Shown here one piece after another: positions 5,561-62,588 of a DNA stretch of 64,000 nucleotides. Position numbers and translations under genes: made by a program. Origin of the DNA: Bacteroidia bacterium (lineage in GTDB: Bacteria; Bacteroidota; Bacteroidia; AKYH767-A; OLB10); contig JALRAP010000003.1 of the NCBI GenBank assembly GCA_023262505.1, forward strand, positions 3,420 through 67,419. Direction: 5' to 3'. Under the pieces are notes generated by a model. It saw only the letters and a list, made by a program, of their open reading frames with translations, was not told the origin of the DNA and searched no databases. Within the stretch, counting starts at the first letter, position 1; each line of letters starts with the position of its first letter.

Positions 5561-5563
5561 AAT

Positions 5564-6283: not shown

Positions 6284-6304
6284 AAGAATTGGTAACCTGA
6301 ATAA

Positions 6305-41529: not shown

Positions 41530-41581
41530 ATCTGAAAATTAGCAGCCTTTCGGCATAATTTACGGATAAAAATACGGATTG

Positions 41582-44234: not shown

Positions 44235-44238
44235 TGTT

Positions 44239-45141
44239 TTATGTCCAAGGTGGCGTAAGCCCTGTTAGCGATTTTATTTTACCGGCTTCCGCTGCGTAAT
44301 AATCATTAATGAAAGAAAGTGTTTGATTATTCACTTCATTTTGTTTTTTGCCGACTGTATTGGACCCGGCAAGCATGCTTTCGAGCTCGTGCGATGCTAA
44401 TTTAAGTTTTTTGCGTATTCCTTTCGGAAGGCGCTGTTTCAGGGGCTTGATGAATCTTTTGAATTTTCGGAAAACGCGTGCGGGAAAGGAAGCCTTTGAT
44501 TCGGAAGATTTGTTGAACACCTTGAATTCATAGCCTGAAAAATATTGAGGATCCAGTCGGGCGAATTGTGCAACTAGCTTGCAAAGGCCTTCCGGATCGC
44601 GCACAAGGTCTTCATAAAAACAAACCAGTATACGGTCTTTCCCCAGCAACTTATAGGCGTCTTCAAGATAGGTGGAGTAACGGCCTTGCTCAAGTGAACG
44701 AAGATGTTGGGGCGGATCCGACTGGTTCTGCTGAATCGTCACAAAGCCTTCCAACGACATATGCTCGTCAATCAAGCCAAGTTGCCGCGCATATTTGTAC
44801 CACGATTCCAATCTGCCTTGTGGCCGGCGTAGTATGAACACCATTTTTGCGTTTGGCAGTTCTTCGGCAATCCTTTTCAATGCATGATGCGAGTACAGGT
44901 AATCCGGGGTCGCTTCCAAATGTGTTTTACCAGGTGTGCTGTTTGGGAACAGCTCATTGAATTCGTGGATGGCTGAATGGTCGCGTTTTTGGGCAACCAA
45001 CTTGTAACCGGCTTCCAGGAAATACCTCGACTCTTTCATAGAACATGCGCAGACTTCAGGATGGAATTCAAAATAATTGAATAGCGAAGTGGTGCCGCAT
45101 TTGGTGCTGCCGCCGATAATCAGGTAGTGGTTACGGTCCAT
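44239..45141 (-). CDS. PAPS-dependent sulfotransferase
   Basis: 5'-PSB loop GGSTKCGTTSL and FILRRPQGRLES 3'-PB-like segment. Confidence 0.8.
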   Translation of the reverse strand: MDRNHYLIIGGSTKCGTTSLFNYFEFHPEVCACSMKESRYFLEAGYKLVAQKRDHSAIHEFNELFPNSTPGKTHLEATPDYLYSHHALKRIAEELPNAKMVFILRRPQGRLESWYKYARQLGLIDEHMSLEGFVTIQQNQSDPPQHLRSLEQGRYSTYLEDAYKLLGKDRILVCFYEDLVRDPEGLCKLVAQFARLDPQYFSGYEFKVFNKSSESKASFPARVFRKFKRFIKPLKQRLPKGIRKKLKLASHELESMLAGSNTVGKKQNEVNNQTLSFINDYYAAEAGKIKSLTGLTPPWT

Positions 45142-46467
45142 TCAGGAAATAAAGGGCAGATAAAATGAATTTAGACCAAGTTTAATGCGAATATATATAA
45201 CGCACGCAATGTTGTAGGTAACGATGAAGAGCGAAGACGCCAAGGCCGAGCCCATGATGCCGTATTGTGGAATCAATATGAAGCATAAAACGATATTGAT
45301 GGCGGTTGTAACAATCATGATGTTGCGGAAAGCGTTCTGATGGCCGGTCATGTTGAGTAGGTTACCGGTCGGACCGGTCAGCGCACCAATCAACCTGCCA
45401 ACTGTAGAAACCATCATAGCCTGAGAGCCCATTAGAAAAGCAGGACCAAACAGCAGCAGCAACCAATCATTGCAGATGAACATGAAGGCGAACACGGGCA
45501 GAGATGCCCAGAAAATTATTTTCGAAGCGAGCCTCACATGTTTTTTCAATCCATCCAAATCATTGGCATGGTGTAGCTGAGCGAAGCGCGGAGTGGTGAA
45601 TCCATTAACAGATAAGATAATGAAGTTGCCGAAGTTGGTTATTTTCAAAATCACAGCAAAAACACCTAACTCCTCCTCGCCTCGGTATGCGCCCAATATG
45701 AGCGTGTTGATCCATCCTGAAATAAGCAGAAGCGACCCTGCCATCATCATAGGCGATGAGGTTCGAATCCATTCAGCATAGCCGATTTCGCTCGATGGCG
45801 AATCTGAATTGTTCTTGATTTTTCGCATTACCATCCACGTACTGCTAATTGCAAGAACAGCTAAACTAACTACGAAAGCAATATTGGGTAAAAGTTCATT
45901 TTCGGAAACAAGTGAAAGCGCACCTAGTATGACCGTGGCATAAATGAAGTATCCCACATTTTGACTGTATGCGTATTCTTTGTTCATTCCGAAACCCCTA
46001 TAGCATTCGGAATTGATGAAGCGCAACACCATTGGCAAAACAGCGAATGAAATCAGCTGCAGATAGGGTTCAACATGAGGTTTCTTGAAAACCACAGTGG
46101 CAATCAACCCCGATGAAAAATACAGTATAGCCGTTAAAGCAAGTCCTACCCAGATGGAGATTCGGAGGGTTTTGCTGTAAACTTCATGAATGCGATCCCA
46201 TCGTCCATTCATGCGGTCGGCTGAAAAGGTTTTCACGATATGGGTATCCATGCCCAACCTGCCCAACACAGTGAAAAGCATCAACACGGTTGTAGAAAGC
46301 GTGTGGGCCCCCAAAACACTTGCGCCGAAAAGCCGGCTTACCAACAGAGTGAAGGCATAGCCTGCAATCAATCCGAGAACACGTAGAATGAAATTGGAGG
46401 CGCTGCCACGGACTGTTTCTGCAGATGGATTATCGCCCGATAACTTTTTCCTTATGGATTGGATCAT
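45142..46467 (-). CDS. polysaccharide flippase (Wzx/MOP superfamily)
   Basis: 441 aa with about 12-14 TM segments. Directly abuts the sulfotransferase gene and overlaps cysQ by 4 nt. Confidence 0.75.
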   Translation of the reverse strand: MIQSIRKKLSGDNPSAETVRGSASNFILRVLGLIAGYAFTLLVSRLFGASVLGAHTLSTTVLMLFTVLGRLGMDTHIVKTFSADRMNGRWDRIHEVYSKTLRISIWVGLALTAILYFSSGLIATVVFKKPHVEPYLQLISFAVLPMVLRFINSECYRGFGMNKEYAYSQNVGYFIYATVILGALSLVSENELLPNIAFVVSLAVLAISSTWMVMRKIKNNSDSPSSEIGYAEWIRTSSPMMMAGSLLLISGWINTLILGAYRGEEELGVFAVILKITNFGNFIILSVNGFTTPRFAQLHHANDLDGLKKHVRLASKIIFWASLPVFAFMFICNDWLLLLFGPAFLMGSQAMMVSTVGRLIGALTGPTGNLLNMTGHQNAFRNIMIVTTAINIVLCFILIPQYGIMGSALASSLFIVTYNIACVIYIRIKLGLNSFYLPFIS

Positions 46468-47318
46468 CCTTCATAGAACCCTTTTCCGTATACAACGAAA
46501 TGCGGGTTTAGCAGTTGTTCTTTGTTGTATTGCAATGGTTGGCCAGTGGCATGTTCGATCACGCTGCAACCTGCCGCTGAGGCGATGGCATCTCCTGCAG
46601 CAATATCCCACTCCATCGTAGGCGCCATCCGTGGATAAACATCCGCTGCACCCTCTGCCACCAGACATAGTTTCAATGAACTGCCCTTGGAAATGACATC
46701 GATTTCCCCATGTATTTCTTTGAGTGAGTCTAAGAAAGACGAAGTATCTGAATTCAGATGAGAGCGGCTCGCTACGGCAGTAACCGTACTGCGGCTGGTA
46801 TGATATGGGAGCGCTTTTGCCGATGACAACAACGAATCGAAATCGTGCATCGCATTTTGAATCAAACTCAAATCTCCGATGCGATGGCTTCCCAGCTGTT
46901 GCCCGCCGAAATAGAGGGTGTTCGTACCAGGAACCAAAATTACGCCCATCGAAGGTCTGTTTCCTTCTATCAATGCGATATTGACGGTGAACTCACCGTT
47001 GCGGTTCAAAAACTCCTTGGTGCCATCCAACGGATCCACCAACCAGAACCTGTTCCAATTTCTGCGTTTCTCATAAACCATCTCGCTGTCTTCTTCACTG
47101 AGCATTGGAATCCGCGTAAGCGCAAGCATGGTTGAGATGATGTCGTGTGAGACCTTGTCGGCCTTGGTAAGCGGCGACAAATCGCTTTTTAGTACCGAGT
47201 CGAAATCGCCGCTTTCGTACACTTCCATAATCGCCTTGCCAGCTTCATAGGCTGCGGCAATAGCTGTTTTCATCAGCTGCACTTCATTCAGGTTATCCAC
47301 GGTTTTCGGGTGTGCCAT
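46464..47318 (-). CDS. cysQ: 3'(2'),5'-bisphosphate nucleotidase
   Basis: Inositol-monophosphatase-fold motifs SEED and WLVDPLDGTKEF. Confidence 0.85.
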   Translation of the reverse strand: MAHPKTVDNLNEVQLMKTAIAAAYEAGKAIMEVYESGDFDSVLKSDLSPLTKADKVSHDIISTMLALTRIPMLSEEDSEMVYEKRRNWNRFWLVDPLDGTKEFLNRNGEFTVNIALIEGNRPSMGVILVPGTNTLYFGGQQLGSHRIGDLSLIQNAMHDFDSLLSSAKALPYHTSRSTVTAVASRSHLNSDTSSFLDSLKEIHGEIDVISKGSSLKLCLVAEGAADVYPRMAPTMEWDIAAGDAIASAAGCSVIEHATGQPLQYNKEQLLNPHFVVYGKGFYEG

Positions 47319-47332
47319 AAGGGGTTTTTATA

Positions 47333-48619
47333 TCAAACAATCATGCCTGCGCCAACCGTTTCATTCGTGCCCTCGTCAATCAGTATCACGCTGCCCGTGA
47401 TGCGGTTTTTGCGATAGCTGTCGAAGAACAGTGGTGCGGTGGTTCGGATATGGATGCGGCCAATGTCATTCATGCCGATGGTTTTGTCAGACTCGTGACG
47501 GTGCAGCGTGTCGATGTCGATCTTGTATCGGATGTCTTTCACCACGCAGCGCACATCACGTGTGGTATGCTTGAGTGCGTACTTGCCTCCGATACTCAAG
47601 GCCTTTTCACTCATCCAACAAACCATGATATCCAAATCCTGCTCCGACTCCGGCATATTGTTTTCGCGTACGAGCATATCACCGCGTGACACATCTACAT
47701 CGGCATCCAGGGTCATGGTAACCGACATCGGCGCGAATGCCTCCTTTACGGTTTCATTAAGCGACAAATCCTTCAATGAATGGATTTCTTTGATTTTTGC
47801 AGTGAACCCGGATGGCAGCACCTTCACCGTGTCTCCCGGCCTGAAGACGCCTCCGGCGATGCGCCCCGCATATCCGCGGAAGTCGTGGTGCTCTTGTGAT
47901 TGCGGACGGATCACATATTGTACAGGAAAGCGGCAGTCAATGTGATTTTCGTCGCTACTGATATGAATGGTTTCCAAAAGGTACATCAAGGTGGCACCTT
48001 TGTACCACTTCATGTTGTTTGATTTTTCAACCACATTGTCGCCATTCAACGCGCTTATGGGAATGAATTGCACGTCTTTCACATCCAGCTTCAGCGAAAG
48101 CTTGCGGTATTCCTCAACGATGTTTTCAAAAACCTCCTGGCTGTAATCCACCAGGTCCATTTTGTTGATGCAAACGATGATGTGTGGGATTTGAAGCAGC
48201 GATGCGATGAATGAATGCCGGTTGGTTTGTTCCACGATGCCTTTGCGAGCATCCACCAATATAAGTGCGAGGTTGGCAGTGGAAGCCCCCGTAACCATGT
48301 TGCGGGTGTATTGGATGTGGCCGGGTGTGTCGGCAATGATGAACTTGCGCTTGGGTGTTGCGAAGTAGCGGTAGGCCACATCGATGGTGATGCCTTGTTC
48401 GCGCTCTGCACGCAAACCGTCGGTCAACAAGGCGAGGTCCACGTGTTCGAAACCTTTCATCTTGCTGGTACGCTCTACGGCTTCAAGTTGGTCGGCGAAA
48501 ATCGATTTGCTGTCGTACAGCAGCCTTCCTATGAGTGTGCTTTTCCCATCGTCAACACTGCCGGCAGTTGTGAACCGCAGCATCTCCATATTCAAGTAAC
48601 TGTTTCCTTTTTTCGACAC
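47333..48619 (-). CDS. cysN: sulfate adenylyltransferase subunit 1 (GTPase)
   Basis: G1 GSVDDGKST, G3 DTPGH, G4 NKMD. 428 aa with no fused kinase domain. Confidence 0.92.
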   Translation of the reverse strand: MSKKGNSYLNMEMLRFTTAGSVDDGKSTLIGRLLYDSKSIFADQLEAVERTSKMKGFEHVDLALLTDGLRAEREQGITIDVAYRYFATPKRKFIIADTPGHIQYTRNMVTGASTANLALILVDARKGIVEQTNRHSFIASLLQIPHIIVCINKMDLVDYSQEVFENIVEEYRKLSLKLDVKDVQFIPISALNGDNVVEKSNNMKWYKGATLMYLLETIHISSDENHIDCRFPVQYVIRPQSQEHHDFRGYAGRIAGGVFRPGDTVKVLPSGFTAKIKEIHSLKDLSLNETVKEAFAPMSVTMTLDADVDVSRGDMLVRENNMPESEQDLDIMVCWMSEKALSIGGKYALKHTTRDVRCVVKDIRYKIDIDTLHRHESDKTIGMNDIGRIHIRTTAPLFFDSYRKNRITGSVILIDEGTNETVGAGMIV

Positions 48620-48636
48620 GGCTTGTGTTTTGTTGA

Positions 48637-49545
48637 TCAGAAATATCCTTGCTTCTTACGGTCTTCCATCGCTGTTTCGGACCGCTTATCGTCGGAACGG
48701 GTACCTCTTTCGGTGACACGTGATGATGCTACTTCGCTGATGATTTCTGCCAAGGTGTTGGCATTCGACATTACAGCGCCGGTGCAGGTCATGTCTCCAA
48801 CGGTGCGGTAACGCACATGCATCATCTCCGGTTTTTCAGTCGGCTTAAGCGGAATGAAATCGGAGGTTGCGAGGATCACGCCATCGCGCACCACGCATTC
48901 GCGGTCGTGCGAGAAATAAATGGAAGGTATGCGCAAATTCTCTTGTGCAATGTACATCCATACATCCATCTCGGTCCAGTTGCTGAGTGGAAACACACGG
49001 AAATGTTCTCCCACGCGTTTCTTGCCGTTCAACAGGTTCCATAGTTCCGGACGCTGGTTTTTCGGATCCCATTGGCCGAAATCGTCGCGATGTGAAAAGA
49101 AGCGTTCTTTGGCGCGTGCTTTCTCTTCATCGCGGCGTGCTCCACCCAAGCAAGCATCAAACTTGTATTGTTCGATGGTATCGAGCAGTGTCACGGTTTG
49201 CAACATGTTGCGGCTGGCGTTGATGCCCTTCTCCTCTGTAACCCGACCAGCATCGATACTTTCTTGTACGGATCCGACTATTAGTTGGGCGCCCGCATCC
49301 TCCACTAGCCAGTCGCGAAACACAATCGTTTCGGGGAAGTTGTGTCCGGTGTCGATATGTACCAATGGAAACGGAATACGTGCAGGATAAAACGCCTTAC
49401 GCGCCAGATGTACCATTACAATGGAATCTTTGCCTCCTGAAAAAAGCAAGGCTGGTCTTTCGAACTGTGCCGCCGTTTCGCGGATCACATAAATGGCCTC
49501 TGACTCGAGGATGCGTAAGTGATTAAGGTTGTATTGAATCATCAA
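48637..49545 (-). CDS. cysD: sulfate adenylyltransferase subunit 2
   Basis: PP-loop FSGGKDS. 302 aa. Confidence 0.95.
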   Translation of the reverse strand: MMIQYNLNHLRILESEAIYVIRETAAQFERPALLFSGGKDSIVMVHLARKAFYPARIPFPLVHIDTGHNFPETIVFRDWLVEDAGAQLIVGSVQESIDAGRVTEEKGINASRNMLQTVTLLDTIEQYKFDACLGGARRDEEKARAKERFFSHRDDFGQWDPKNQRPELWNLLNGKKRVGEHFRVFPLSNWTEMDVWMYIAQENLRIPSIYFSHDRECVVRDGVILATSDFIPLKPTEKPEMMHVRYRTVGDMTCTGAVMSNANTLAEIISEVASSRVTERGTRSDDKRSETAMEDRKKQGYF

Positions 49546-50168
49546 GCGGGTATGATCAGCTTTAATACATGTTGGGCTATATGCGATGACGCATGTTCTA
49601 TGCTTATTTCCGCAGTGCGGATGGTGATTTCAGGATTCTCTGGGTTTTCAAATGGCGAACTGATGCCTGTGAAGTCGGGAATTTCGCCGGCACGGGCTTT
49701 TTTGTAAAGTCCTTTCACGTCCCGTTGCTCGCAGACGTCCACAGGACAATCCACAAACACCTCCACGAATTCGTTCGCCTCCACCAACGAACGTACGAAT
49801 GCCCGGTCTGATTTGAACGGCGAGATGAAGGCAGTCAACACAACAACCCCCGCATCCACAAAGAGCTTGGATACTTCTCCGATTCGTCGGATGTTTTCAT
49901 TGCGACCCTCGGGAGAAAAATCCAAGTTGCTGTTCAGTCCTTGTCGGATGTTGTCCCCATCCAACACATAGGTGTGGATGCCTCTTTCCATCAACAACTG
50001 TTCTACGGCATTGGCCAAGGTGCTCTTGCCAGAACCAGAAAGCCCCGTGAACCAAACCACACATGGCCTATGGCCATTCTGTGTAATGCGGGTTGATTTC
50101 CCGATTTTGTACGCTTGAGGGATGATGTGGGTAGGAGCAGACATTATGGAATTAATCCATGTAGGCAT
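49542..50168 (-). CDS. cysC: adenylyl-sulfate (APS) kinase
   Basis: P-loop GLSGSGKSTLA. 4-nt overlap with cysD. Confidence 0.92.
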   Translation of the reverse strand: MPTWINSIMSAPTHIIPQAYKIGKSTRITQNGHRPCVVWFTGLSGSGKSTLANAVEQLLMERGIHTYVLDGDNIRQGLNSNLDFSPEGRNENIRRIGEVSKLFVDAGVVVLTAFISPFKSDRAFVRSLVEANEFVEVFVDCPVDVCEQRDVKGLYKKARAGEIPDFTGISSPFENPENPEITIRTAEISIEHASSHIAQHVLKLIIPA

Positions 50169-52388: not shown

Positions 52389-52721
52389 ATGGTAAACCTC
52401 GAAAACACAAAAGCCCAGATGCGGAAGGGGGTCCTGGAGTTCTGTACCCTCAGCATCATAGCCAAGGGACAGATATACCCGTCCGACATCATCGCCCAGC
52501 TGCGCAACTCCCAAATGATGGTGGTGGAGGGAACATTGTATCCGTTACTCACCCGCTTGAAAAACGCCGGCCTCATCACATACACTTGGGTAGAGTCGAA
52601 CGCAGGGCCGCCCCGGAAATATTTCACCATCACCGACCAAGGTCAGGCTTTTTTGAAGGAACTCGAATCAACTTGGCAGGAACTGGTGTCATCGGTAAAC
52701 AACACCATCAAACATTCTTAA
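52389..52721 (+). CDS. PadR family transcriptional regulator
   Basis: 110 aa with the EGTLYPLLTRLKNAGLI winged-helix signature. Confidence 0.9.
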   Translation: MVNLENTKAQMRKGVLEFCTLSIIAKGQIYPSDIIAQLRNSQMMVVEGTLYPLLTRLKNAGLITYTWVESNAGPPRKYFTITDQGQAFLKELESTWQELVSSVNNTIKHS

Positions 52722-52732
52722 AACAGCAATAC

Positions 52733-54400
52733 ATGAACAAGACCATTTCAGTTAACATCGGCGGTTTCGTTTTTCATATCGAAGAACAGGCCTATGCCGA
52801 ACTTCGACAATATCTTGAAACCATTTCCAACGGCATCCCAATCAATGAAGGTCGCCAGGAAATCATGTCCGACATTGAAGCGCGCATCGCCGAGATATTC
52901 AAGGATGCCTTGCAAACTTCTAAGAAAGAAGTGGTGGTTGCTGACGATGTGAAATCAGCCATCAACACCATGGGTCGTCCCGAAGAGATTACTGATCCGT
53001 TTCAACAATCATCGGAGCAAAAAGAAAATACGGAATCAACTACCTTCTCGAGGCCATATAAGATGCTTTATCGCGATGGCGACGAGCGCATCATAGGAGG
53101 TGTATGCTCCGGACTAGGACATTACTTCGGCATCAATCCTTTGCTTTTCAGGGCAGCCTTTGCCATTGCGTTTGTTTTCTGGGGCTCCGGATTGCTGTTA
53201 TATATCATACTGTTGTTAATCATCCCCAAAGCCAAAACCACTGCAGAGAAATTGGAGATGCGCGGCCGTCCGGTAAATCTGAAGGAGATCCGCAAGAACA
53301 TGGAGGAGGAATTCGGAGAAATTGGTAGAAGCGCAGAGGCGGGATATAGCAAGATGGAGTCGGAAATAAAAAACAGCAACTGGAAAGGTCGTGTCAATGG
53401 CTTTTTCGATATGCTGGGAGTTTTGCTGACGCGCTTCTTCAAGATCGTAGCCAAATTCTTCGCGATCATAGTATGGTTTGTATCCGTGGTTTTGCTGGTG
53501 GGTGTTACGGCGGCCGTCATCGCCAAATTGTTCGGCTCGGAGAACGTAACAGTAATGGACATCAACGGAATGGAGTTTTTCGAAGGCAACAATGCCAATT
53601 TGTTCGTGATCGGGATCTGTTTGCTCATTGGTGTTCCAGCATTTGCACTGACATACATCACCACCAAGTACATCTTTGGCATCAAAAAATCATTCAAGCC
53701 GATGCCTTGGTTGCTTTCGGTTCTTTTCCTAGTAGGATTGATTTGTTTAATCATCGCATCCATCCAAACTGCCAGTGATTTCAAATCGAAATCATCCGTC
53801 ACCAACCCCATTCCAATTGCACAGCCAAAATCCGACACATTGGTTGTTTCCATGGCGAATGGGAATCCGGATGAGGATTTTTGGGAGGGTGAGGAAATTC
53901 AAATACATACCCCGTTTTTCTCCGACTCAATAGATGCCGGAAGTGTCAAATGGGAATTGTTGTCGGCCTCAACAGATTCTTTCCAACTGGAAGAGACCCG
54001 CACATCCCGAGGTAAAAACATGGAAGAAGCCAAGGACAATAGCTCCAAGGTGATTTACAAGATGACCCAAACAGGCGATACCCTGATGTTGGAACCGAAT
54101 TTTGATTTGCAGGATCAAGCAAAATTCAGATTTCAAAAGATGCGTATTGGTGTGAAAGTGCCTAAGGGGAAATCCATTCTTGTCACAGAATCCGCAGCCA
54201 AATACTTGCGCAGAGTGGAAGGATACAACGGGGACATGGAGTCTTATAACTTAGTTGGGGTTTGGACGAACGGACCTGATGGACTGCAATGCGCCGAATG
54301 TGAGCCATCACATCCATCCGCAAAGCATGGCAAGAAGTCATCCACCATTATGGAAATACGTGTGGATACCTCCGGTGTCACGATTAAAAAGGAGGAGTAG
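52733..54400 (+). CDS. PspC domain-containing membrane protein
   Basis: GGVCSGLGHYFGINPLLFRAAFAIAF PspC motif. Start at ATG 52733 (MNKTISVNIGGF). The listed ORF start 52367 overlaps padR and is rejected. Confidence 0.8.
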   Translation: MNKTISVNIGGFVFHIEEQAYAELRQYLETISNGIPINEGRQEIMSDIEARIAEIFKDALQTSKKEVVVADDVKSAINTMGRPEEITDPFQQSSEQKENTESTTFSRPYKMLYRDGDERIIGGVCSGLGHYFGINPLLFRAAFAIAFVFWGSGLLLYIILLLIIPKAKTTAEKLEMRGRPVNLKEIRKNMEEEFGEIGRSAEAGYSKMESEIKNSNWKGRVNGFFDMLGVLLTRFFKIVAKFFAIIVWFVSVVLLVGVTAAVIAKLFGSENVTVMDINGMEFFEGNNANLFVIGICLLIGVPAFALTYITTKYIFGIKKSFKPMPWLLSVLFLVGLICLIIASIQTASDFKSKSSVTNPIPIAQPKSDTLVVSMANGNPDEDFWEGEEIQIHTPFFSDSIDAGSVKWELLSASTDSFQLEETRTSRGKNMEEAKDNSSKVIYKMTQTGDTLMLEPNFDLQDQAKFRFQKMRIGVKVPKGKSILVTESAAKYLRRVEGYNGDMESYNLVGVWTNGPDGLQCAECEPSHPSAKHGKKSSTIMEIRVDTSGVTIKKEE

Positions 54401-54457
54401 TTTTTGAAAACGGCTGCATTTTCAGCATAGTTTTCAAACAGAAAATAACTACTCCTC
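54392..54457. terminator. nested hairpin terminator between convergent genes
   Basis: Outer stem gaggagtagtt / aactactcctc and inner stem tttgaaaac / gttttcaaa. Overlaps the pspC-like stop codon. An adjacent palindrome caaacctgcaggtttg follows. Confidence 0.6.
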
Positions 54458-54480: not shown

Positions 54481-55047
54481 TCAAAACGCCGCATCCAAAT
54501 CCAAGCAGATGCTTTTGATATCGGGGTCGTGTATGGCTTGAGCTTTTATTTTTTCGAAAAGTTCTGGACGGAAACGTTTAGCCCTAAGTGTTACAAACAA
54601 TAGGAATTCAATTCCTTTTTGGAAATATGCCTTAGGCGAGGACTCTTCCTTTATCGCAATATTTCGGTATTCCTTCTCGTACGCGGTAGCGAATGACGTC
54701 AAAGAACTATGTTCGTCGAAATTTTGGTACCAATGACCTTCAACATGGATAAAAGAATCCAAGGCATCTATGACTTGCTCAGGGGCTTCCAACGCAATTT
54801 TATTCAGATCATATACTTTGGAAATTTTCAACTCTTCCCATAATGTGAATACACCTAATGTGTATCCAATAGACCATTTCAAATCTTCCTGTTTTTGGGT
54901 CTTGAGGTACTTGTTCGACGGATGGTTCCAGATGTTGTAGCACAAAGTGCCGAACATCTTTTCCCATGGACGCATGGCGCCCAAGCGGGATTTGATCAAT
55001 GCTCCGAGCTTGCGGAGTTCTTCTTGATTGAATTCATTTTTTTCCAT
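54481..55047 (-). CDS. hypothetical protein (last gene of MoxR/vWA/MAT-like operon)
   Basis: 188-aa ORF starting 13 nt after the MAT-like gene. No TM segment or catalytic motif recognised. Confidence 0.6.
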   Translation of the reverse strand: MEKNEFNQEELRKLGALIKSRLGAMRPWEKMFGTLCYNIWNHPSNKYLKTQKQEDLKWSIGYTLGVFTLWEELKISKVYDLNKIALEAPEQVIDALDSFIHVEGHWYQNFDEHSSLTSFATAYEKEYRNIAIKEESSPKAYFQKGIEFLLFVTLRAKRFRPELFEKIKAQAIHDPDIKSICLDLDAAF

Positions 55048-55060
55048 TTTGATTTTTGTT

Positions 55061-56173
55061 TTAAAGGTTCATAATCTGTTTGCTGGCCAAGGTCTTTACT
55101 GGACTGCACCAGGATAATGTGTCATTGTAGAAGGTTCCTAATCCGGATAGTTGATATTCGAGATCCGACTCGTTTACCCTTTCGCGCATATTGTCGAAGT
55201 GGAAATAATCATGCGCATCAAGCGTAGGTCTACGGTCTGTTTTCAAGTCGATCATTAATGGCGCTGCCATGCCTGGTGCAAAGCATATCCGCACCAGCGC
55301 CTCTTGGGCTCCATTCCGTACCAGTTCCAATGCAAAGCGCCTGGCTTGGAAAGCACCAAGTCGGTCGATGTGGTACAGGTCTTTGCCATAAATGGCTCCT
55401 CCTCCAATGGCAATCCGTGGACCGTAATAATCCATTACCAGTTTGCGGCCGGTCTGTCCATTGTCTGCGGCACTACCGCCATTCACCAACGGACCATTCG
55501 GATTTACGATTAGTTGAATCTCATCCCACCGGCCAATCCAACGGTGGTCGTGTTGGCGTAGTTTTTTCCATGCTTGATGAAGCACCTGTTCGACACGTTC
55601 TGTGAGTTCATAAAACGACAAAGATTCCTGCTGCTGGAGTGTAACCAGTATGGTTTGGGGCTTCCATCCATCGTGTTCCTCAAACATTGTAATCAGCACT
55701 TTCCCATCTGGACCTTGGTCTTGCAGCAAGCCTCTTTCGATGGAATCCATAAGCGAATCGCGTAGATGCCATACCAGGAATTGTTCGGGAGGAAGAAAAC
55801 GGGTTTTGGCATCATATCCCGCATATCCAGTAACTATATTTTGGTCGCCTGAGAAACCGGTCCACTTGCGTGGATTTCCAACGACCTTGCAGATTTCATC
55901 GATGATGACATAATCCGTAGCTTTCACACAATTCCTGTTGGTGTAACCGATCTCTTCTCCCAACTCCACCACCAATTCACGGATTGGTATGGTTACTGGG
56001 TTCTTTGTGACCCATGCTCCGGTCAGGAAAATCTTGTTCGACCAAACGGAAACTTCGATCTGGGCATATGCTCCGGTTTCTTTCCTGTAAAGTTCACGGA
56101 TGATGCGGTCGGCCAGCAAATCGCAAAACTTGTCGGGGTGGCCGTTCAAGACAGCCTCGGCAAAATGTTTCAT
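55061..56173 (-). CDS. divergent S-adenosylmethionine synthetase (methionine adenosyltransferase, MetK-fold) homologue
   Basis: GHPDKFCDLLADRI, GDQNIVTGYA, GPDGK, VNPNGPLVNGGSAADNGQTGRK and GGGAIYGKDLYHIDR align with MetK motifs GHPDK, GDQG, PDxK, TGRK and GGGAFSGKD. 370 aa. Confidence 0.8.
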   Translation of the reverse strand: MKHFAEAVLNGHPDKFCDLLADRIIRELYRKETGAYAQIEVSVWSNKIFLTGAWVTKNPVTIPIRELVVELGEEIGYTNRNCVKATDYVIIDEICKVVGNPRKWTGFSGDQNIVTGYAGYDAKTRFLPPEQFLVWHLRDSLMDSIERGLLQDQGPDGKVLITMFEEHDGWKPQTILVTLQQQESLSFYELTERVEQVLHQAWKKLRQHDHRWIGRWDEIQLIVNPNGPLVNGGSAADNGQTGRKLVMDYYGPRIAIGGGAIYGKDLYHIDRLGAFQARRFALELVRNGAQEALVRICFAPGMAAPLMIDLKTDRRPTLDAHDYFHFDNMRERVNESDLEYQLSGLGTFYNDTLSWCSPVKTLASKQIMNL

Positions 56174-57480
56174 TTATCAATTGGTTTTAGGTGGTATGCG
56201 GCAATTCCGATGGAGTTGAACATATCGGCTTTTCCGTCTGGGGTTATGATGGCGGAGATATTCCGCTTTTCTACACCATGCAATTCTCCGATGCCGATGT
56301 TTTCCACATAGCCATCCGTTACGATCAATGCTTTTTTGAATTTTTTCTTTTCCATATGTTCGAAAACGGATTCCAATACCGTCCCATTGGTGGTTTCACA
56401 GTTCAAAACTCCGTTTTTGAATTTGGCAGGTACTACCTCGGTAGAGAATGTCCAAATCGGTAGCCGTATTTGTTGGTTGAATTTCTGTATCAATGGCATC
56501 AGATGGGGTAACACCTTGTCCATGGACGCGCTCACATCTATGTAAATGTTCATAAGCTCGCCAGGCAAACCGTTGGCCACTTCCATCCTGGACATCGGCA
56601 GTAGACTGGATGCGTATAGCAGCGCAAAGGCTCTGCGATCTTGATTTGAAATGAATGGCATCAGGGCCTGCGAACCCTTGTCTTTTTTGGCCTTCGGGTC
56701 AGGTTGCAAGCATCTCAAAAGCAATGGCAGTGTAGCCCTTTTCCATGCATGGAGCTTTGCCTTTTCCATTTTTTTACCGATGATGTTCAGCTCGTTCTTG
56801 TTGCCGGATGTTTTTGCCTTTCCGAAAAATGCACCCGTATTGAGGTTTTTGAAAATATCGCTCAACAGCCTGCGGTTTTCGTCTGAAATCTCCTCGAACT
56901 GGCCACGATGATCTCCAATGAAAAAAATATGATATAACTCCAACTTTGTATTGACAAGAGACTGGGCCAACTCATGAACATCCTCGGCAGATATTTCCCC
57001 ATTGTAGACTTTTTCGTGTAAATCCACAATTCGATGATCCCGAAAACTTGATCTGGATTCACAATGATCGAATGGGCGTAATAGTTGTTGCAGGCCCACA
57101 GGCGCATATATGTTTTTGAAGAAATTTGAAAATCTTGGGCCATGTACCCGATGTATGATGCTGTTGATGACTGTATCCAAGGCCAAATTCAAAAGAAAAG
57201 TCATTTTTTTGAATTTGTTGGTGTGTTCCAAAAGCACGTGTAGGAACTCGTGCAGTAGTACGGCCTTCAAGTCGTCTTCATTTCGGCAGCAATTGTTCAC
57301 AAAATGCGGATTGATGTATAATGTAGGATTGCTCTTCAGGCTGACCGCCAACGTTCTCACGTCAACTGTTAATTGTACCTCCGCAATCCTGTAAAGCGCC
57401 CTTGTTGCAAACAGGTTTTCATCTGCCAGATCCAGCATGACCTGGGTTATTTTATTCTTCGTCCATTCCATAGTATTCAC
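56170..57480 (-). CDS. HExxH metallopeptidase-like N-domain + vWA-like C-domain protein (DUF2201-type architecture)
   Basis: HEFLHVLLEH motif and a MIDAS-like YIDVSASMDK in the C-terminal half. ATGA overlap with the MAT-like gene. Alternative start at ATG 57438. Confidence 0.7.
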   Translation of the reverse strand: MNTMEWTKNKITQVMLDLADENLFATRALYRIAEVQLTVDVRTLAVSLKSNPTLYINPHFVNNCCRNEDDLKAVLLHEFLHVLLEHTNKFKKMTFLLNLALDTVINSIIHRVHGPRFSNFFKNIYAPVGLQQLLRPFDHCESRSSFRDHRIVDLHEKVYNGEISAEDVHELAQSLVNTKLELYHIFFIGDHRGQFEEISDENRRLLSDIFKNLNTGAFFGKAKTSGNKNELNIIGKKMEKAKLHAWKRATLPLLLRCLQPDPKAKKDKGSQALMPFISNQDRRAFALLYASSLLPMSRMEVANGLPGELMNIYIDVSASMDKVLPHLMPLIQKFNQQIRLPIWTFSTEVVPAKFKNGVLNCETTNGTVLESVFEHMEKKKFKKALIVTDGYVENIGIGELHGVEKRNISAIITPDGKADMFNSIGIAAYHLKPIDK

Positions 57481-57862
57481 GGGTATTTAATTCGATCAAT
57501 CTCACGCTGCGATTCAAACGATTCTGGGTGCAGATCATCGGGCTGTTTGGCCAATAGCGATTCGTGTTGGATTTGCTCAATATCATGGCTGCCCTGAGCA
57601 TGGATTTCTTGTCTATCGGAGATTCGAAATCCTGCAAGGTTGGGAACAACAACATGGTTTTTGCAGGCAGATTCAACGCTTTTCCGGCCTCCTCCCAATC
57701 CTTGTATCCACAGGCATGCAGCAGTTTCTCCATCCACTTTTCCAAATCCGCTGTTTTTTTCGGTGGTTTCAATGAAACGATTTCACAAAGCACCCCTTGG
57801 CTTTCGCCCTCGAAAATGGATTCATACACCTTTTCAGTTTTTACAACAGATCTTGGTCCCAT
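57452..57862 (-). CDS. hypothetical protein
   Basis: 136-aa ORF, 7 nt after the MoxR-like gene, overlapping the next gene by up to 29 nt. No motif recognised. Confidence 0.5.
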   Translation of the reverse strand: MGPRSVVKTEKVYESIFEGESQGVLCEIVSLKPPKKTADLEKWMEKLLHACGYKDWEEAGKALNLPAKTMLLFPTLQDFESPIDKKSMLRAAMILSKSNTNRYWPNSPMICTQNRLNRSVRLIELNTREYYGMDEE

Positions 57863-57869
57863 GCTGATT

Positions 57870-59324
57870 TCAGGATTTTGCTTCTTTTAGGAAGCGGGTT
57901 ACCTTGTCAAAGCATATGTTCAATTCCTCCTCCAAAGTCGCCGCATCGCTGATGGTTTCGAATTTCAACAGTAGGTAAAGGATCAGCTGCTTGGCCCGTT
58001 TCTTGCGAAGCGTGTTTTTCTTCGGGAAGGAGTTGATCAGTTTTTGGCATTCAGCCCAAATGGGATGTTTGTCGCTTTTGATTTCCTGGTTCACCATTTC
58101 CTTCCATTTCAATTCGCCATTCACCTCCATGATTTCGGATGTGATCTTCAACATGTCGCTCAACGCATCCTCAGTCAGCATCGACTGGGAACTTAGTGCA
58201 GGGTAAGCGGAAAAACAGAAAATGGCTCTGCTCTCGTGATCCATCCTCATCATTTTTTGGATTACGGCGATGCTCTTGGTGTCTTTGTCGATTTGGGCTT
58301 CGAACAGCATGTCGATGCAAGTTGCCACCTGCTCTGTTTTTAAAAACTCAGCTACCCAGGATTGTGCTTCATCACCAGCCAAAACCAAGCGAGCCGCCTC
58401 CGCGTGTGCGGTGTCTATTTGGTGCTGTGCCACTTGTTCCCGATATGCCCGATGCGGAACGCTCCAGGTCAAGGTGAGTTTGAACAAGCTCATCAATTGT
58501 TTTTCGTCCAGCTCACCTTTCAATTCTTGGACCACACAAGCAACCGCGGTGATGTTGCGTGCAAGCAATCGAGCTCGGCGCGGAGAAATCCGCATACCGG
58601 CTTCATGCAAAAACGATGTGACCAAACGAACGTAGTTGACCGTTCGCTTATCTGGGTTTTGTATGGCCTCTTCGAATACGGGTTTCAATTTGTATACAAA
58701 ATCATACAGGCCCCCATTGTCATTCGAAAGGGCGTTCTCCCCAGCGGGATCAATCACGCCTAACTGTTCATCTTTTTTCAAGTCGGGCCAATCGGGCACC
58801 TCTATGATGAATGCGAATCGGTCGGCTAATGCCTGATCCAATGCCTGGCTGCCTTCGTAATGGTCGTCGTCGCCATTCATTTGGAATGGATTCATGGCCG
58901 CCCAGCGATAGGTCAGCTTTTCAAGAGCGATGCCCTGAATTTTCCGCTCGTGTACGATTGAGAAAAATTTGTTTTGGCTTTCTGGTTTGCACCGGCTGAG
59001 CTCATCCACTAAAACTGATTGGGCGCCCCATACGGTAGCCGGTGTTTGAAGGAATCGGATGGAGTTCCCATCCGCATCCGGAGCGGGGAATCCGATCAGG
59101 TCATCGAACGAAATCAGACTCGCATTGTAATGCCGATGCTCCAGTCGCATGGCTTCCGAGATGCTGTTCAGTAAAAATGTTTTTCCGGTGCCGGCTTCTC
59201 CGATGAGTAGTATCGGGTCTTCCGATACCAATGCGGCCAAAATGAGTGGTTCAACTTCGTCGAAGCCGAACACGCCGAGTTTCCTCAGAAACCCTTTCGA
59301 TTTTGTTGGTTGCTTTTTTTCCAT
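57870..59324 (-). CDS. MoxR-like AAA+ ATPase with ~270-aa helical C-terminal extension
   Basis: Walker A GEAGTGKT, Walker B VLVDELSR, sensor-1 AAMNP, DRF, sensor-2 ISPRRARLLARNI. Confidence 0.85.
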   Translation of the reverse strand: MEKKQPTKSKGFLRKLGVFGFDEVEPLILAALVSEDPILLIGEAGTGKTFLLNSISEAMRLEHRHYNASLISFDDLIGFPAPDADGNSIRFLQTPATVWGAQSVLVDELSRCKPESQNKFFSIVHERKIQGIALEKLTYRWAAMNPFQMNGDDDHYEGSQALDQALADRFAFIIEVPDWPDLKKDEQLGVIDPAGENALSNDNGGLYDFVYKLKPVFEEAIQNPDKRTVNYVRLVTSFLHEAGMRISPRRARLLARNITAVACVVQELKGELDEKQLMSLFKLTLTWSVPHRAYREQVAQHQIDTAHAEAARLVLAGDEAQSWVAEFLKTEQVATCIDMLFEAQIDKDTKSIAVIQKMMRMDHESRAIFCFSAYPALSSQSMLTEDALSDMLKITSEIMEVNGELKWKEMVNQEIKSDKHPIWAECQKLINSFPKKNTLRKKRAKQLILYLLLKFETISDAATLEEELNICFDKVTRFLKEAKS

Positions 59325-59858
59325 GTTGCAGTTTTTTTGGCTGCATCACGGAATAAAACGGACAGGAAATGTGGTGGGTGAACATTTTTGGCATTCCTTG
59401 CCCGCATCGTTCGGCCACCGTGGTGTTCCACTCGGTTGGCACCCATTTAAGGGTTCGTGATGCTGCCGCAAAGTTACGGCGATTTTCAAAAATCCAACAT
59501 CCAAACAAAAATATTTTTAGAAACGCCTGATGATGAGACCCATAAATTTTGGCTGTTACACAATAATATGTGTGTGGACATTTTCAACATTTCAATGCTC
59601 AAACACAGAAGTGCATCGCAATGGTAAGCGGGCAATCAGTGCCCAAAGGACGAAACAGGGGCATATTCCCCATGCCCTAATTTTCAAGACCATTTCCTAA
59701 TTTCGCCTTGATACCGCCTAGGTTAAATTAGATGGCGCGGTTGTTTCGCAATTTACGGGTCTGGAGTGCGATTCTCCAGTCGACCCTGCAAAAACAAATG
59801 AATAAGAGTCGTGAATCATCTATATCCAAACAATAATAATCCCAAACAACATCCAAAC

Positions 59859-62588
59859 ATGAAAAACCTCTTTAGGTTGCTTCTCTGTGCGCTGCTGATG
59901 GCGCCAATCGTAACATCGGCCCAAAAGAAACCGGCCGCTGCTCCGGTAAAAGTCACTTCCGTGGAAGGCATCACCGAGTACCAATTGGCGAACGGCATGA
60001 AAGTGCTTCTGTTCCCCGACCCTTCCAAATCCACCATCACCGTTAACATCACCTACCTGGTGGGCTCACGCCACGAAGGATATGGCGAAAGCGGCATGGC
60101 CCACTTGTTGGAGCACATGGTTTTCAAAGGAACACCTAAGCATCCCAACATCCCACAAGAATTAACGGCGCACGGTGCAAGGCCTAATGGAACGACTTGG
60201 CTCGACCGCACCAACTATTTCGAAACATTCAACGCTACCGAAGAAAACCTGCGTTGGGCACTTGACATGGAGTCTGACCGTATGATCAATTCCTTCATAG
60301 CTAAAAAGGATTTGGAGAGCGAATTCTCAGTTGTGAGAAATGAATTCGAATCTGGTGAGAACGACCCAAGCGGAGTATTGATGGAGCGTGTGATGTCTAC
60401 GGCTTATCTGTGGCACAATTACGGAAAGTCAACTATCGGCTCTCGTGAAGATATCGAGCGTGTGCCTATCGAGAACCTCCAGGCTTTTTATAAGAAGTTT
60501 TATCAGCCCGACAACGCAGTGTTGATGGTGGCTGGCAAAATCGACGAGGCCAAGACATTGCAAATGGTGAATGAGTATTTCGGAGTCATTCCCAAGCCAA
60601 CGCGTGTGCTGCAGCCTACTTATACCGTTGAGCCTACCCAAGACGGCGAGCGCCATGTGGTGCTGCGTCGTGTTGGTGATGTGCAAGTGGCCGCTATGGG
60701 ATACCATGTGCCTGCCGGTGCTCATCCTGATTACCCAGCAGTTGATTTGTTGACAGACATCCTTACCAACGAGCCTTCCGGCCGCTTGTACAAGGCCTTA
60801 GTTGAAACCAAGATGGCCACCAGTGTTGGCGGATTCGCCTTCGAACTCAAGGATCCTGGTTATGCCTATTTCACCGCAGACGTACTCAAGGAGAAATCAC
60901 TTGATGAGGTGATGAATACCATGCAGTCGATCATGGATAATTTGAAAGACAACCCAGTCACACCTGCCGAAGTTGAGCGCGCCAAAAACAAATCACTCAA
61001 GTTTTTCGAACAAACTTACAATAACAGTGAGCGTGTGGGTTTGACACTATCCGAATACATCGCCAAAGGCGATTGGAGATTATTCTTCCATCAGCGTGAT
61101 ATGACCGAGAAAGTCACTGCCGCAGATGTGAACCGTGTTGCTGCCGCTTATTTCAAGCCTTCCAACCGCACCACTGGAAAATTCATTCCTGATGCGGCAC
61201 CTGATCGCGCTGTGATTACCGCAGCTCCAGATCCTGCTGCGTTGCTCAAGGATTACAAAGGGAAACAAGCACTCAAACAAGCCGAGGATTTTGAAGCCAC
61301 TCCAGATAATATCGCACAGCGCACCGTAAAAGGAGAGATATCCGGCGGCGCCAAGTATGCTTTCTTGAAAAAGACCACCCGTGGTGGAACCGTCAACGTA
61401 TCGATGACTTTGCGCATTGGCAGTGTGGCTGCTTTACAAGGTAAGTCAACCGTTGCCGATATGACCGCTGCGATGTTGCGTCGCGGAACCGCGAGAATGA
61501 GCATGGAGCAGATCAACGATGCGTTCGACAAAATGAAATCCAGCGTGAGTATATACGGATCCGGTCAAACGGTGAGTGTAAGCATCTCAACTACGGCTGA
61601 GCAATTGGAAAACACGTTGAAGCTTGTTCAGGAAATACTTCGTACCCCCTCCTTCCCACAAGCCGAACTGAGCAAGTTAGTAGACGAAGAATTGGCCGAC
61701 ATCGAAAAGCAGCGTAGCGAGCCGCAAAGCATTGCAGGACTTGAATTTTCACGCATCATGAAATCTTATCCTAAAAACGATTTCCGTTATGCAATGGATT
61801 TCGATGAGCAGGTGGCATCGGTAAAGGCGGTTACAATCGACCAGATCAAGAAGCTTTACCAGGATATGTACAACAGCACCAACGCTACGGTTGCCATCGT
61901 TGGCGACTTTGACGACAAAGCCATATTGGGTGTGTTGAAGCAAATGCTGGGCGATTGGAAATCACCGGTGGCATATGAGCGTGCCGTTGACACATACACC
62001 GCATCCAAACCTGGCACCAAGAAAATCAACACGCCTGATAAGACCAACGCCATGATGATGGCTGGTTTGAATGTCGAGTTCAAAGATGATAATGACGATA
62101 TGGCCGCCATGGTTATCGGCAACTACATCCTGGGCGGTGGATTCCTCAATTCCCGTCTGGCAGTCCGCATCCGTCAGAAGGAAGGTATCAGCTACGGTGT
62201 AGGATCGCAATTTCAACCCGGACAACTTGATAACTCCGGCATGTTCATGTCTTTTGCCATATACAATCCTGAAAACTCAGAGAAATTGGTTGCTTGCTTG
62301 CGCGAGGAACTGAAGCGCATCGTGAACGATGGCATTACCGAGCAAGAGTTGAAGGACGCTTCCAGTGGTTACCTACAAAGCCGCAAGGTGAGCCGTTCCC
62401 AAGACCGTGAACTAGTAGGAAGATTGAATAACTATCTGTTCCTGAATCGCGACATCTTCTGGGATCGCGACTTGGAATACCGCGTTACCAAACTCGATGT
62501 TAAACAAGTGAACGACGCCCTGAAGCGTTGGATCAAGCCCGACGATATCTACGTGGTAGAAGCAGGCGAGTTTGAGAAGAAGAAATAA
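59859..62588 (+). CDS. secreted M16 (pitrilysin) family zinc peptidase, two-unit fusion
   Basis: Inverted zinc motif HLLEHMVFKGT. Signal peptide MKNLFRLLLCALLMAPIVTSAQ from ATG 59859. About 909 aa. Confidence 0.9.
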   Translation: MKNLFRLLLCALLMAPIVTSAQKKPAAAPVKVTSVEGITEYQLANGMKVLLFPDPSKSTITVNITYLVGSRHEGYGESGMAHLLEHMVFKGTPKHPNIPQELTAHGARPNGTTWLDRTNYFETFNATEENLRWALDMESDRMINSFIAKKDLESEFSVVRNEFESGENDPSGVLMERVMSTAYLWHNYGKSTIGSREDIERVPIENLQAFYKKFYQPDNAVLMVAGKIDEAKTLQMVNEYFGVIPKPTRVLQPTYTVEPTQDGERHVVLRRVGDVQVAAMGYHVPAGAHPDYPAVDLLTDILTNEPSGRLYKALVETKMATSVGGFAFELKDPGYAYFTADVLKEKSLDEVMNTMQSIMDNLKDNPVTPAEVERAKNKSLKFFEQTYNNSERVGLTLSEYIAKGDWRLFFHQRDMTEKVTAADVNRVAAAYFKPSNRTTGKFIPDAAPDRAVITAAPDPAALLKDYKGKQALKQAEDFEATPDNIAQRTVKGEISGGAKYAFLKKTTRGGTVNVSMTLRIGSVAALQGKSTVADMTAAMLRRGTARMSMEQINDAFDKMKSSVSIYGSGQTVSVSISTTAEQLENTLKLVQEILRTPSFPQAELSKLVDEELADIEKQRSEPQSIAGLEFSRIMKSYPKNDFRYAMDFDEQVASVKAVTIDQIKKLYQDMYNSTNATVAIVGDFDDKAILGVLKQMLGDWKSPVAYERAVDTYTASKPGTKKINTPDKTNAMMMAGLNVEFKDDNDDMAAMVIGNYILGGGFLNSRLAVRIRQKEGISYGVGSQFQPGQLDNSGMFMSFAIYNPENSEKLVACLREELKRIVNDGITEQELKDASSGYLQSRKVSRSQDRELVGRLNNYLFLNRDIFWDRDLEYRVTKLDVKQVNDALKRWIKPDDIYVVEAGEFEKKK

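Follow-up and report, generated by a model that had tools for sequence, protein, structure and literature searches.

A SAM-riboswitch-linked cassette of a MoxR-type ATPase, a zincin-vWA protein and a divergent methionine adenosyltransferase-fold protein

The 64,000-nucleotide stretch of a Bacteroidia bacterium genome analyzed here (GenBank assembly GCA_023262505.1, contig JALRAP010000003.1, forward-strand positions 3,420 to 67,419; "the window" below) carries a minus-strand operon at window positions 54481 to 59324. Its first four genes form a conserved cassette, A-B-C-D, that encodes a MoxR-type AAA+ ATPase (A), a small protein without known family (B), a protein joining a zincin-like HExxH domain to a vWA domain (C) and a divergent protein of the methionine adenosyltransferase (MAT) fold (D). 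We found that the operon is preceded by an S-adenosylmethionine (SAM) riboswitch, and that three different classes of SAM riboswitch stand before the same cassette in other phyla, so that the cassette belongs to the SAM regulon. We favor, with moderate confidence, a model in which the whole unit responds to low SAM and D is matured or reactivated by A and C together with B. The parts are of known kinds (a MoxR/vWA activase, a MAT fold and SAM riboswitches); the combination is apparently new.

Riboswitch control of the operon

The operon consists of five closely packed genes on the minus strand. Gene A (57870-59324; 484 amino acids) encodes a MoxR-family, AAA_5-type AAA+ ATPase, and is followed by gene B (57452-57862; 136 amino acids), which codes for the small conserved partner protein. 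Gene C (56170-57480; 436 amino acids) combines the zincin-like N-domain with a vWA C-domain that holds a metal ion-dependent adhesion site (MIDAS), and is putatively of the DUF2201 type. Gene D (55061-56173; 370 amino acids) is the divergent MAT-fold protein with a rebuilt acceptor pocket, and gene E (54481-55047; 188 amino acids) is a lineage-specific orphan. A gap of 7 nt separates A from B and one of 13 nt separates D from E; B and C overlap by 29 nt, and C and D share the ATGA at 56170-56173. These values take the GTG start of C, while the public database call is an ATG at 57471, which gives 433 amino acids and an overlap with B of 20 nt. Downstream of E, a nested hairpin (54393-54456) followed by a U-run (54380-54392) makes an intrinsic terminator on the minus strand, common to the operon and to a convergent PspC-domain gene. 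The hairpin folds at -31.8 kcal/mol (z = -5.28), and none of 200 shuffles folded equally well. A preliminary description, made from the letters of the window alone, had reported five co-directional genes, a nested hairpin terminator at 54392-54457 and the domain calls (AAA+, HExxH/vWA, MAT fold and two orphans). The open reading frame (ORF) listing agrees with the genes and all their junctions, RNA folding recovers the terminator, and the domain calls are borne out by Pfam and NCBIfam and by residue conservation. What had been overlooked was the content of the 534-bp spacer upstream of gene A, which was taken for non-coding and holds the riboswitch.

The aptamer, of the SAM-I/IV class (RF01725 in Rfam), lies in the 5' leader of gene A (59374-59468, minus strand) and ends 49 nt before the ATG of A on the same strand. 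It scored 52.5 bits (gathering score, 41.1; E = 1e-7) with model positions 1-99 all matched, and reached 85.4 bits with R1, a covariance model built from the leaders of homologous loci. Covariation supports the same structure: among 33 homologous leaders, 94.3% of cells were paired, compared to 28-46% in slid controls, and compensatory changes were found in 11 of the 18 pairs. The pseudoknot between the P3 loop and the 3' tail covaries as well, being approximately 80% paired with compensatory changes. The 52.5-bit match was obtained by searching the short region 59250-59900, whereas an Rfam search of the entire 64-kb window at the gathering threshold did not report the aptamer, which is lost in the speed filters, so a negative scan of a large window is no evidence of absence. 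Directly 5' of the aptamer we read from the sequence a candidate Bacteroidota-type promoter (59469-59499, minus strand), with a TTG at 59498-59496, a spacer of 19 nt and a putative -7 box, TAACTTTG, at 59476-59469. The same box precedes the aptamer in another locus (L008), and the arrangement fits the Bacteroides promoter consensus TTTG/TAnnTTTG. The leader of the window is predicted to act as an OFF switch that binds SAM and represses expression.

To place this leader in a wider frame, we tallied riboswitches in 61 non-redundant loci with upstream sequence. By our own approximate count, in which several matches score below the Rfam gathering scores, a SAM riboswitch of class SAM-I, SAM-I/IV or SAM-II stands directly before gene A in about 43 of the 61, and somewhere in the co-directional upstream region in about 53. 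The sub-threshold matches are positioned exactly in the leader of gene A, and the covariance model of homologous leaders found the same aptamer before A in nearly all Bacteroidota and Ignavibacteria loci with upstream sequence. The class varies with the phylum. SAM-I/IV aptamers occur in Bacteroidota, Ignavibacteria, Verrucomicrobia, Chloroflexi and one Firmicutes-labelled metagenome-assembled genome (MAG), with scores of 64.7 (L059), 48.5 (L062), 48.2 (L004), 44.2 (L048) and 43.2 bits (L047). SAM-I is found in Acidobacteria (78.9 bits in L077 and 67.3 in L064, with weaker matches in L046, L052 and L074), and SAM-II in Proteobacteria and Gemmatimonadetes (55.5 bits in L080, tandem copies in L085 and further loci). 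In L077 and L085 the Shine-Dalgarno sequence lies in the aptamer or at or abutting its 3' edge, and a Shine-Dalgarno sequence at the edge of an aptamer is the usual design of an OFF switch. The riboswitch is thus probably an OFF switch that lets the operon be made when SAM is low, and the presence of three unrelated aptamer classes before the same operon in different phyla indicates that the cassette is meant to be expressed only under such conditions.

The likeness to the known SAM-riboswitch regulons of metK and methionine genes (S-box, SAM-II and SAM-I/IV) extends to the aptamer class in the leader, to the Shine-Dalgarno sequence or start codon at its 3' edge and to canonical metK genes that adjoin cassettes and carry the same aptamers. 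It stops at the products, since the cassette encodes a MoxR ATPase, a zincin-vWA protein and a non-canonical MAT, and no such member of a SAM regulon was found in the literature. Another protein family accompanies proteobacterial cassettes: 218-270 amino acids long, without a Pfam match and with the motifs DLEFRP..YFWP and VVDEYGG, it is encoded at L075 3575-4387, L076 3429-4124 and L060 5379-6035. Its gene immediately follows SAM-II riboswitches in L075 (tandem) and L076, which makes it a further candidate member of the regulon.

Conservation and distribution of the cassette

To follow the cassette across bacteria we used one genome per species (185,579 species). D belongs to a large family of relatives of about 360 amino acids, located at 363 places, almost always in a MAG, and spread over Bacteroidota, Ignavibacteria, Verrucomicrobia, Lentisphaerae, Acidobacteria, Proteobacteria, Chloroflexi, Gemmatimonadetes, Armatimonadetes, Elusimicrobia, Latescibacterota and other groups. 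Profile searches of 87 fetched loci detected A in 78, B in 80, C in 84 and D in 86, the gaps being mostly contig ends, and the order A-B-C-D is kept in essentially all of the 87 with a long enough contig, over more than 12 phyla. After profile iteration B sits between A and C in 80 of them, the vWA partner C is two genes downstream of the ATPase in every locus, and each C homologue whose context was examined is part of an A-B-C-D block. The co-localization of the MAT-like clade with its neighbors, left as a question by the preliminary description, holds. An accidental adjacency of these genes, to which we assign practically no chance, is refuted by the shared order across so many phyla and by the overlapping stop and start codons. 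The five-gene unit first proposed stands as a packed, co-transcribed block, but what is conserved is four genes: E was found only in L008 and L010, the closest relatives, and its position elsewhere is empty or taken by unrelated genes (FGase in L001, a 145-amino-acid ORF in L007). E is co-transcribed in the window and is not part of the conserved cassette.

The surroundings of the cassette are heterogeneous. Among 150 immediate neighbors, compared by clustering, Pfam and PADLOC, no recurring family was present in more than 2 of the 150; most flanking genes have housekeeping roles, and restriction-modification, UvrD, DUF4143 and WYL genes turn up occasionally. In the plasmid, phage and IMG/VR collections the D clade was not found, the MATs there being only canonical or phage forms with at most 34% identity. 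The best explanation of the whole pattern is that A-B-C-D is a self-contained, horizontally mobile four-gene cassette. In the literature, PADLOC, Pfam, NCBIfam and PHROGs we found neither the cassette described, nor the D clade set apart as an enzyme of its own, nor these genes listed among the targets of SAM riboswitches, in line with the earlier claim that no described system joins a MoxR/vWA pair to a MAT-fold enzyme, and the cassette is apparently undescribed so far.

Near some cassettes there are tRNA genes and group II intron fragments (L062 6173-6245, where the tRNA lies about 390 nt upstream of the riboswitch; L100 10082-10155; L047 56-139 and 11962-12067; L054 17358-17411), a proximity consistent with insertion into variable or island regions. 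The one cultured isolate with the cassette that we found is Cnuella takakiae (locus L088 1-21290; FQUO01000001.1 498642-519931; assembly GCA_900129015.1), with the cassette itself at roughly 506.8-511.2 kb of that contig. Its neighbors there are an AAA_15/AAA_21/DUF3696 ATPase, a WYL-WCX regulator, a small vWA protein, a UvrD helicase and DUF5675 and DUF5715 proteins, and the stretch looks like a defense or mobile island. In the window, the cassette is flanked on one side (52389-54400, plus strand) by a PadR regulator with the PspC-domain membrane protein, and on the other (59811-62588, plus strand) by a divergent two-domain M16 peptidase with a probable signal peptide, for which the ATG at 59859 is the likelier start.

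This distribution could also be that of an anti-phage module guarding the SAM pool, a reading we consider rather improbable. A phage SAM lyase or MetK inhibitor would lower SAM and the riboswitch would de-repress the operon, after which either the SAM supply would be protected for restriction or BREX (bacteriophage exclusion)-type systems, or the cell would be killed or arrested through ATP consumption. The patchy occurrence over more than 12 phyla would suit such a module, with insertion sites that vary and are sometimes beside a tRNA, as would those flanks that hold restriction-modification genes, UvrD/GajB-like helicases, DUF4143/PDC-S01, WYL or AAA_15/21 proteins. We also counted in its favor the extra metK that travels along in some loci, 52-59% identical to Escherichia coli MetK even in proteobacteria-labelled MAGs, and the conflict systems with MoxR/vWA cores reportedly proposed in 2020 by Kaur et al. 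(Kaur, Burroughs, Iyer and Aravind). However, none of the five proteins had a significant match in PADLOC: in the scan of PADLOC-DB v2 the best was mad8 (E = 3e-4), limited to the P-loop of A, and B, C, D and E had no match. The cassette has no nuclease, pore, TIR or SIR2-type effector. Its neighborhood and the collections searched argue in the same direction, given the prevalence of housekeeping flanks, the fact that no defense family exceeds 2 of the 150 neighbors and the failure to find the D clade among plasmids and phages, and ordinary methionine starvation would trigger the operon too. The ternary MoxR-vWA-VMAP conflict systems reportedly share with the cassette a MoxR-type ATPase and a vWA protein in a mobile, patchy unit; A, nevertheless, reached only 15.6 bits with bpMoxR (PF20030), far under the cut-off of 27, and Pfam detected neither a VMAP nor an effector domain in the other four proteins.

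A related and still less probable idea is that the SAM riboswitch itself serves as the sensor of infection or stress, opening when the SAM pool collapses under a phage SAM lyase or a MetK inhibitor. The MAT-derived enzyme, made together with the MoxR/vWA/zincin machine, would then either drain ATP or turn it into a new 5'-deoxyadenosyl compound that acts as a signal or stands in for SAM. If this is true, it would provide the first example of riboswitch gating in an immune or guard system, and D would be the first MAT-fold enzyme whose acceptor is not methionine. The preliminary description had offered a defense or signaling module as its second hypothesis, and this receives no direct support from our analysis, in view of the lack of PADLOC matches and of a conserved effector and of the mostly housekeeping flanks.

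The MAT-like protein D and the adjoining canonical MetK

We evaluated residue conservation in D over 119 relatives, with the methionine contacts given in E. coli MetK numbering. D matches all three S-AdoMet_synt domains of Pfam, N, M and C (PF00438, PF02772 and PF02773), and has the three-domain fold of MetK, but it is only 24% identical to the E. coli enzyme and scores 144.2 bits against the equivalog model TIGR01034, below its cut-off of 309.4. The residues that bind ATP, tripolyphosphate (PPPi) and metal (Mg/K) are almost all invariant: H15, D17, E43, D119, K166, R245, K246, K266 and D272 are found in every relative, D239 in 118 of 119, and K18 is either K or R. The methionine contacts, in contrast, have been replaced family-wide, with E56 changed to G, A or S, Q99 mostly to L, I or V, K270 to H (118/119) and I303 to P (119/119). 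In addition, the gating loop is shortened and has a new conserved P..W motif, an invariant Cys95 has appeared two residues ahead of the position of the Gln contact, and the last approximately 58 residues differ from MetK.

The contacts lost in D have counterparts of known function in human MAT2A, where Glu70, Gln113 and Lys289 are the equivalents of E56, Q99 and K270. Crystal structures show the methionine main chain held by Glu70, Gln113 and Asp258; the K289N variant has lowered SAM synthesis with unaffected phosphatase activity, and Q113A keeps 75% activity (PMC6850014). From the pattern of kept and replaced residues, D would still cleave ATP at C5' (the C5'-O5' bond) and hydrolyze PPPi, with an acceptor other than free L-methionine or with methionine bound in a new way, and the new Cys95/His268 pair may be a metal site. 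The best reading of D, judged by its sequence, is that of a neofunctionalized adenosyltransferase, in a fold that to our knowledge has been regarded as dedicated to a single reaction.

Alternatively, D could be a second, stress-induced SAM synthetase that works from methionine and ATP through the reshaped pocket and is chaperoned by A, B and C as it folds or assembles. We hold this to be unlikely, although the riboswitch regulation is exactly like that of metK, the complete catalytic set for ATP and PPPi is kept and the Q113A variant of human MAT2A has 75% of its activity left. E56, K270 and I303 are replaced in 118-119 of the 119 relatives, and the shorter gating loop with its P..W motif and the distance to the TIGR01034 cut-off (144 versus 309 bits) point away from a SAM synthetase. 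The exchange of the K270 equivalent in the human enzyme (K289N) is one that lowers SAM synthesis (PMC6850014). A backup enzyme would moreover be redundant in the 12 loci in which a riboswitch-controlled canonical metK is found alongside.

In these 12 related loci the canonical MetK is encoded upstream on the same strand (among them L019 5163-6500, L030 399-1532, L035 2982-4139, L038 1954-3138, L042 5456-6634, L049, L050, L054 5314-6474, L060 3642-4829, L071 4217-5380 and L075 4541-5758). All of its methionine-contact residues are intact, its identity to E. coli MetK is 52-59%, and in most of the 12 loci it has its own detected riboswitch. Even in proteobacteria-labelled MAGs these MetKs resemble the MetK structures of proteobacteria no more closely than other ones, which suggests that they are cassette-linked extra copies and not the housekeeping gene. 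In some loci, duplicated SAM-I/IV riboswitches are followed by products of the decay of such a gene: L016 6222-6617 encodes a 131-amino-acid fusion of the MetK N and C termini, and L009 951-1178 a MetK C-terminal remnant amid three tandem aptamers, both being decayed metK remnants. In L017 an IS200/RAYT-like transposase (5525-6511) is located where metK would be. No canonical metK is present within the 64-kb window. The canonical metK beside the cassette in related loci indicates that D is not the housekeeping enzyme and that the cassette is tied to SAM metabolism. The possibility, raised in the preliminary description, that D is simply the sole housekeeping metK of its genome is rejected on this ground together with the TIGR01034 score and the replaced methionine contacts.

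Proteins A, B and C and the proposed mechanism

Protein A matches AAA_5 (32 bits; cut-off, 22) and AAA_3 (28 bits; cut-off, 27) in Pfam, and its nearest relatives of solved structure are the AAA domains of midasin. Walker A (G42..K48-T49), Walker B (D107-E108), the sensor-1 residue N145 and R169, R249 and R250 are at least 93% conserved among 55 orthologues, features from which A is predicted to be a catalytically intact AAA_5/MoxR ATPase. In C, residues H77, E78, H81, H86 and D102 are invariant, and so is the MIDAS set D315-x-S317-x-S319, T367 and D389 in 59 sequences. The AlphaFold model of C has a mean confidence score (pLDDT) of 84.7, and its best Foldseek match was NorD in the NorQD complex (9qhe_G; probability, 0.99; E = 6.7e-3), followed by the Rea1 MIDAS domain and integrin I domains, with probabilities of 0.9-0.99 among these top matches. 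The TM-score with NorD was only 0.24-0.39, owing to the two domains of the model. On the model, C is a vWA-fold protein with an intact MIDAS and an intact HExxH motif.

By sequence C is harder to place. It scores 21.5 bits with PF13203 (DUF2201_N), below the cut-off of 23.2; several relatives have precomputed PF13203, PF09967 or PF05762 matches and one is named "DUF2201 family putative metallopeptidase" by NCBI, and weak similarity extends to M48, SprT and DUF2201_N peptidases. A profile search against PDB sequences gave no match, and the PADLOC, NCBIfam and PHROGs scans returned no specific family. Within PHROGs, C matched phrog_1314 over two stretches (E = 3e-18), labelled "HNH endonuclease," probably wrongly, and weakly a phage "metallo-protease" family, while A matched phage ATPase families including the CobS-like "porphyrin biosynthesis" phrog_249. 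Phages appear to carry related proteins of both kinds.

Protein B has a conserved N-x-G-G-P-x-S-R motif, preceded in its relatives by a variable N-terminal leader, and begins directly at the GP motif, without leader, in the window. It ends in an F/Y-Y-x tail in which the Tyr is invariant (35/35 sequences in alignment A2; window positions 57452-57470). Outside Bacteroidota the ending is hydrophobic-Tyr-X, resembling the HbYX tails with which proteasomal ATPases dock on ring complexes. B had no match in Pfam, NCBIfam, PHROGs or, by profile search, PDB sequences, and its AlphaFold model is unusable (pLDDT, 43). E likewise had no family or structure match in Pfam, NCBIfam, PHROGs and PDB sequences.

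The zincin-like domain invites a different reading, in which A and C would be a trans-acting AAA+/zincin protease with an FtsH-like logic, directed at a protein of the SAM pathway (MetK, D or B), and D an ATP-binding adaptor, decoy or pseudo-enzyme. C never loses E78, and its HExxH, H86 and D102 do not vary; the weak resemblance of C to the M48, SprT, DUF2201_N and phage "metallo-protease" families and the variable leader of B ahead of its GGP motif would agree with a protease. MAT active sites form across the dimer interface, so mixed MetK:D oligomers are conceivable. Nevertheless, every catalytic residue of D is invariant, those that hydrolyze PPPi among them, which is unexpected for a decoy, and we know of no MoxR-family ATPase that acts as a processive unfoldase. 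The absence of a leader in B of the window implies that cleavage at that point cannot be essential. We regard the protease as quite unlikely.

MoxR/vWA pairs typically act on one dedicated client enzyme encoded nearby, usually by metal insertion or inhibitor release, as is the case for CbbQO with Rubisco, NorQD with nitric oxide reductase, CoxDE, CobST and BchID. The cassette resembles NorQ/NorD and CbbQ/CbbO in having an AAA_5-type ATPase gene near a gene for a protein with a C-terminal vWA-MIDAS domain and a presumed client in the same operon; for NorQ/NorD, the best fold match of the vWA model of C and the intact ATPase motifs of A add to the likeness. It differs in that the client would be a MAT-fold enzyme instead of nitric oxide reductase or Rubisco, and in the zincin-like N-domain of C, the small protein B and the SAM riboswitch control. 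Pfam, NCBIfam and PDB profile scans detected no membership in the NorD or CbbO families by sequence. The pairing of an AAA_5 ATPase with a vWA protein is also that of CobS/CobT and of phage CobS-like genes, to which the matches of A and C to phrog_249 and phrog_1314 relate them, but the cassette lacks a CobN/BchH-type large subunit and an adenosylcobalamin riboswitch, and similarity to BchD is marginal (E = 0.05). For lack of a CobN-like subunit and of such a riboswitch, a corrinoid or metal-centered adenosyltransferase with a CobST-like motor is only a distant prospect.

Elsewhere in the window (40510-50168, minus strand), a block for the synthesis of 3'-phosphoadenosine 5'-phosphosulfate (PAPS) lies beside two sulfotransferases, a glycosyltransferase and a polysaccharide exporter, all probably forming a sulfated-polysaccharide cluster. 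The block, on the minus strand, comprises an adenosine 5'-phosphosulfate kinase (49542-50168), a CysD-like protein (48637-49545), a CysN-like GTPase (47333-48619) and a CysQ-like phosphatase (46464-47318). A part for this cluster in the system of the operon was rejected because it is missing from other cassette loci.

D is the only invariant partner of A and C, and MoxR/vWA pairs serve one neighboring client, which makes the action of A, C and B on D the most economical model; activation of the MAT-like enzyme by the AAA+/vWA pair, the first hypothesis of the preliminary description, remains the best mechanistic reading. In this model, a fall in SAM would open the leader riboswitch and the operon would be expressed. 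A and C, with B as adaptor or cofactor, would form a remodeling machine like NorQ/NorD or CbbQ/CbbO with D as its client, and would either load metal into the new Cys95/His268 pocket of D or reopen D when locked by a product or inhibitor. D could then transfer the 5'-deoxyadenosyl group of ATP to a non-methionine acceptor, or bind methionine in a new way, the net purpose being to restore SAM-linked chemistry, or to substitute for it, when SAM runs short. The extra canonical MetK with its own riboswitch might assist in roughly one locus in five.

Several observations weigh against this model. The patchy spread over many phyla and the occasional restriction-modification, UvrD or WYL neighbors are compatible with a conflict system too. 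At the expected place, 8 to 18 of the 61 loci have no detectable riboswitch, and several matches score under the Rfam gathering thresholds. Since Q113A keeps 75% activity, loss of the Gln alone is no proof that methionine is no longer used. Finally, B has no recognizable fold, and a pure activase leaves unexplained what the HExxH domain, invariant in C, is for.

SAM riboswitches count among the most thoroughly studied regulators, and their regulons are thought to hold genes for the synthesis, salvage and transport of methionine and SAM. To these is added a cassette under three SAM riboswitch classes, in more than a dozen phyla, whose proteins have had no known place in SAM metabolism. The large D clade has kept the ATP/tripolyphosphate chemistry, but its methionine pocket is rebuilt and now contains a Cys and a His that never vary. 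This suggests an adenosyl transfer not seen before, or a new metabolite of the sulfonium or adenosyl kind. If the proposed mechanism is true, D would also be a new class of client for MoxR/vWA machines, served by a vWA adaptor fused to a zincin domain, in a system that is testable in the cultured isolate Cnuella takakiae.

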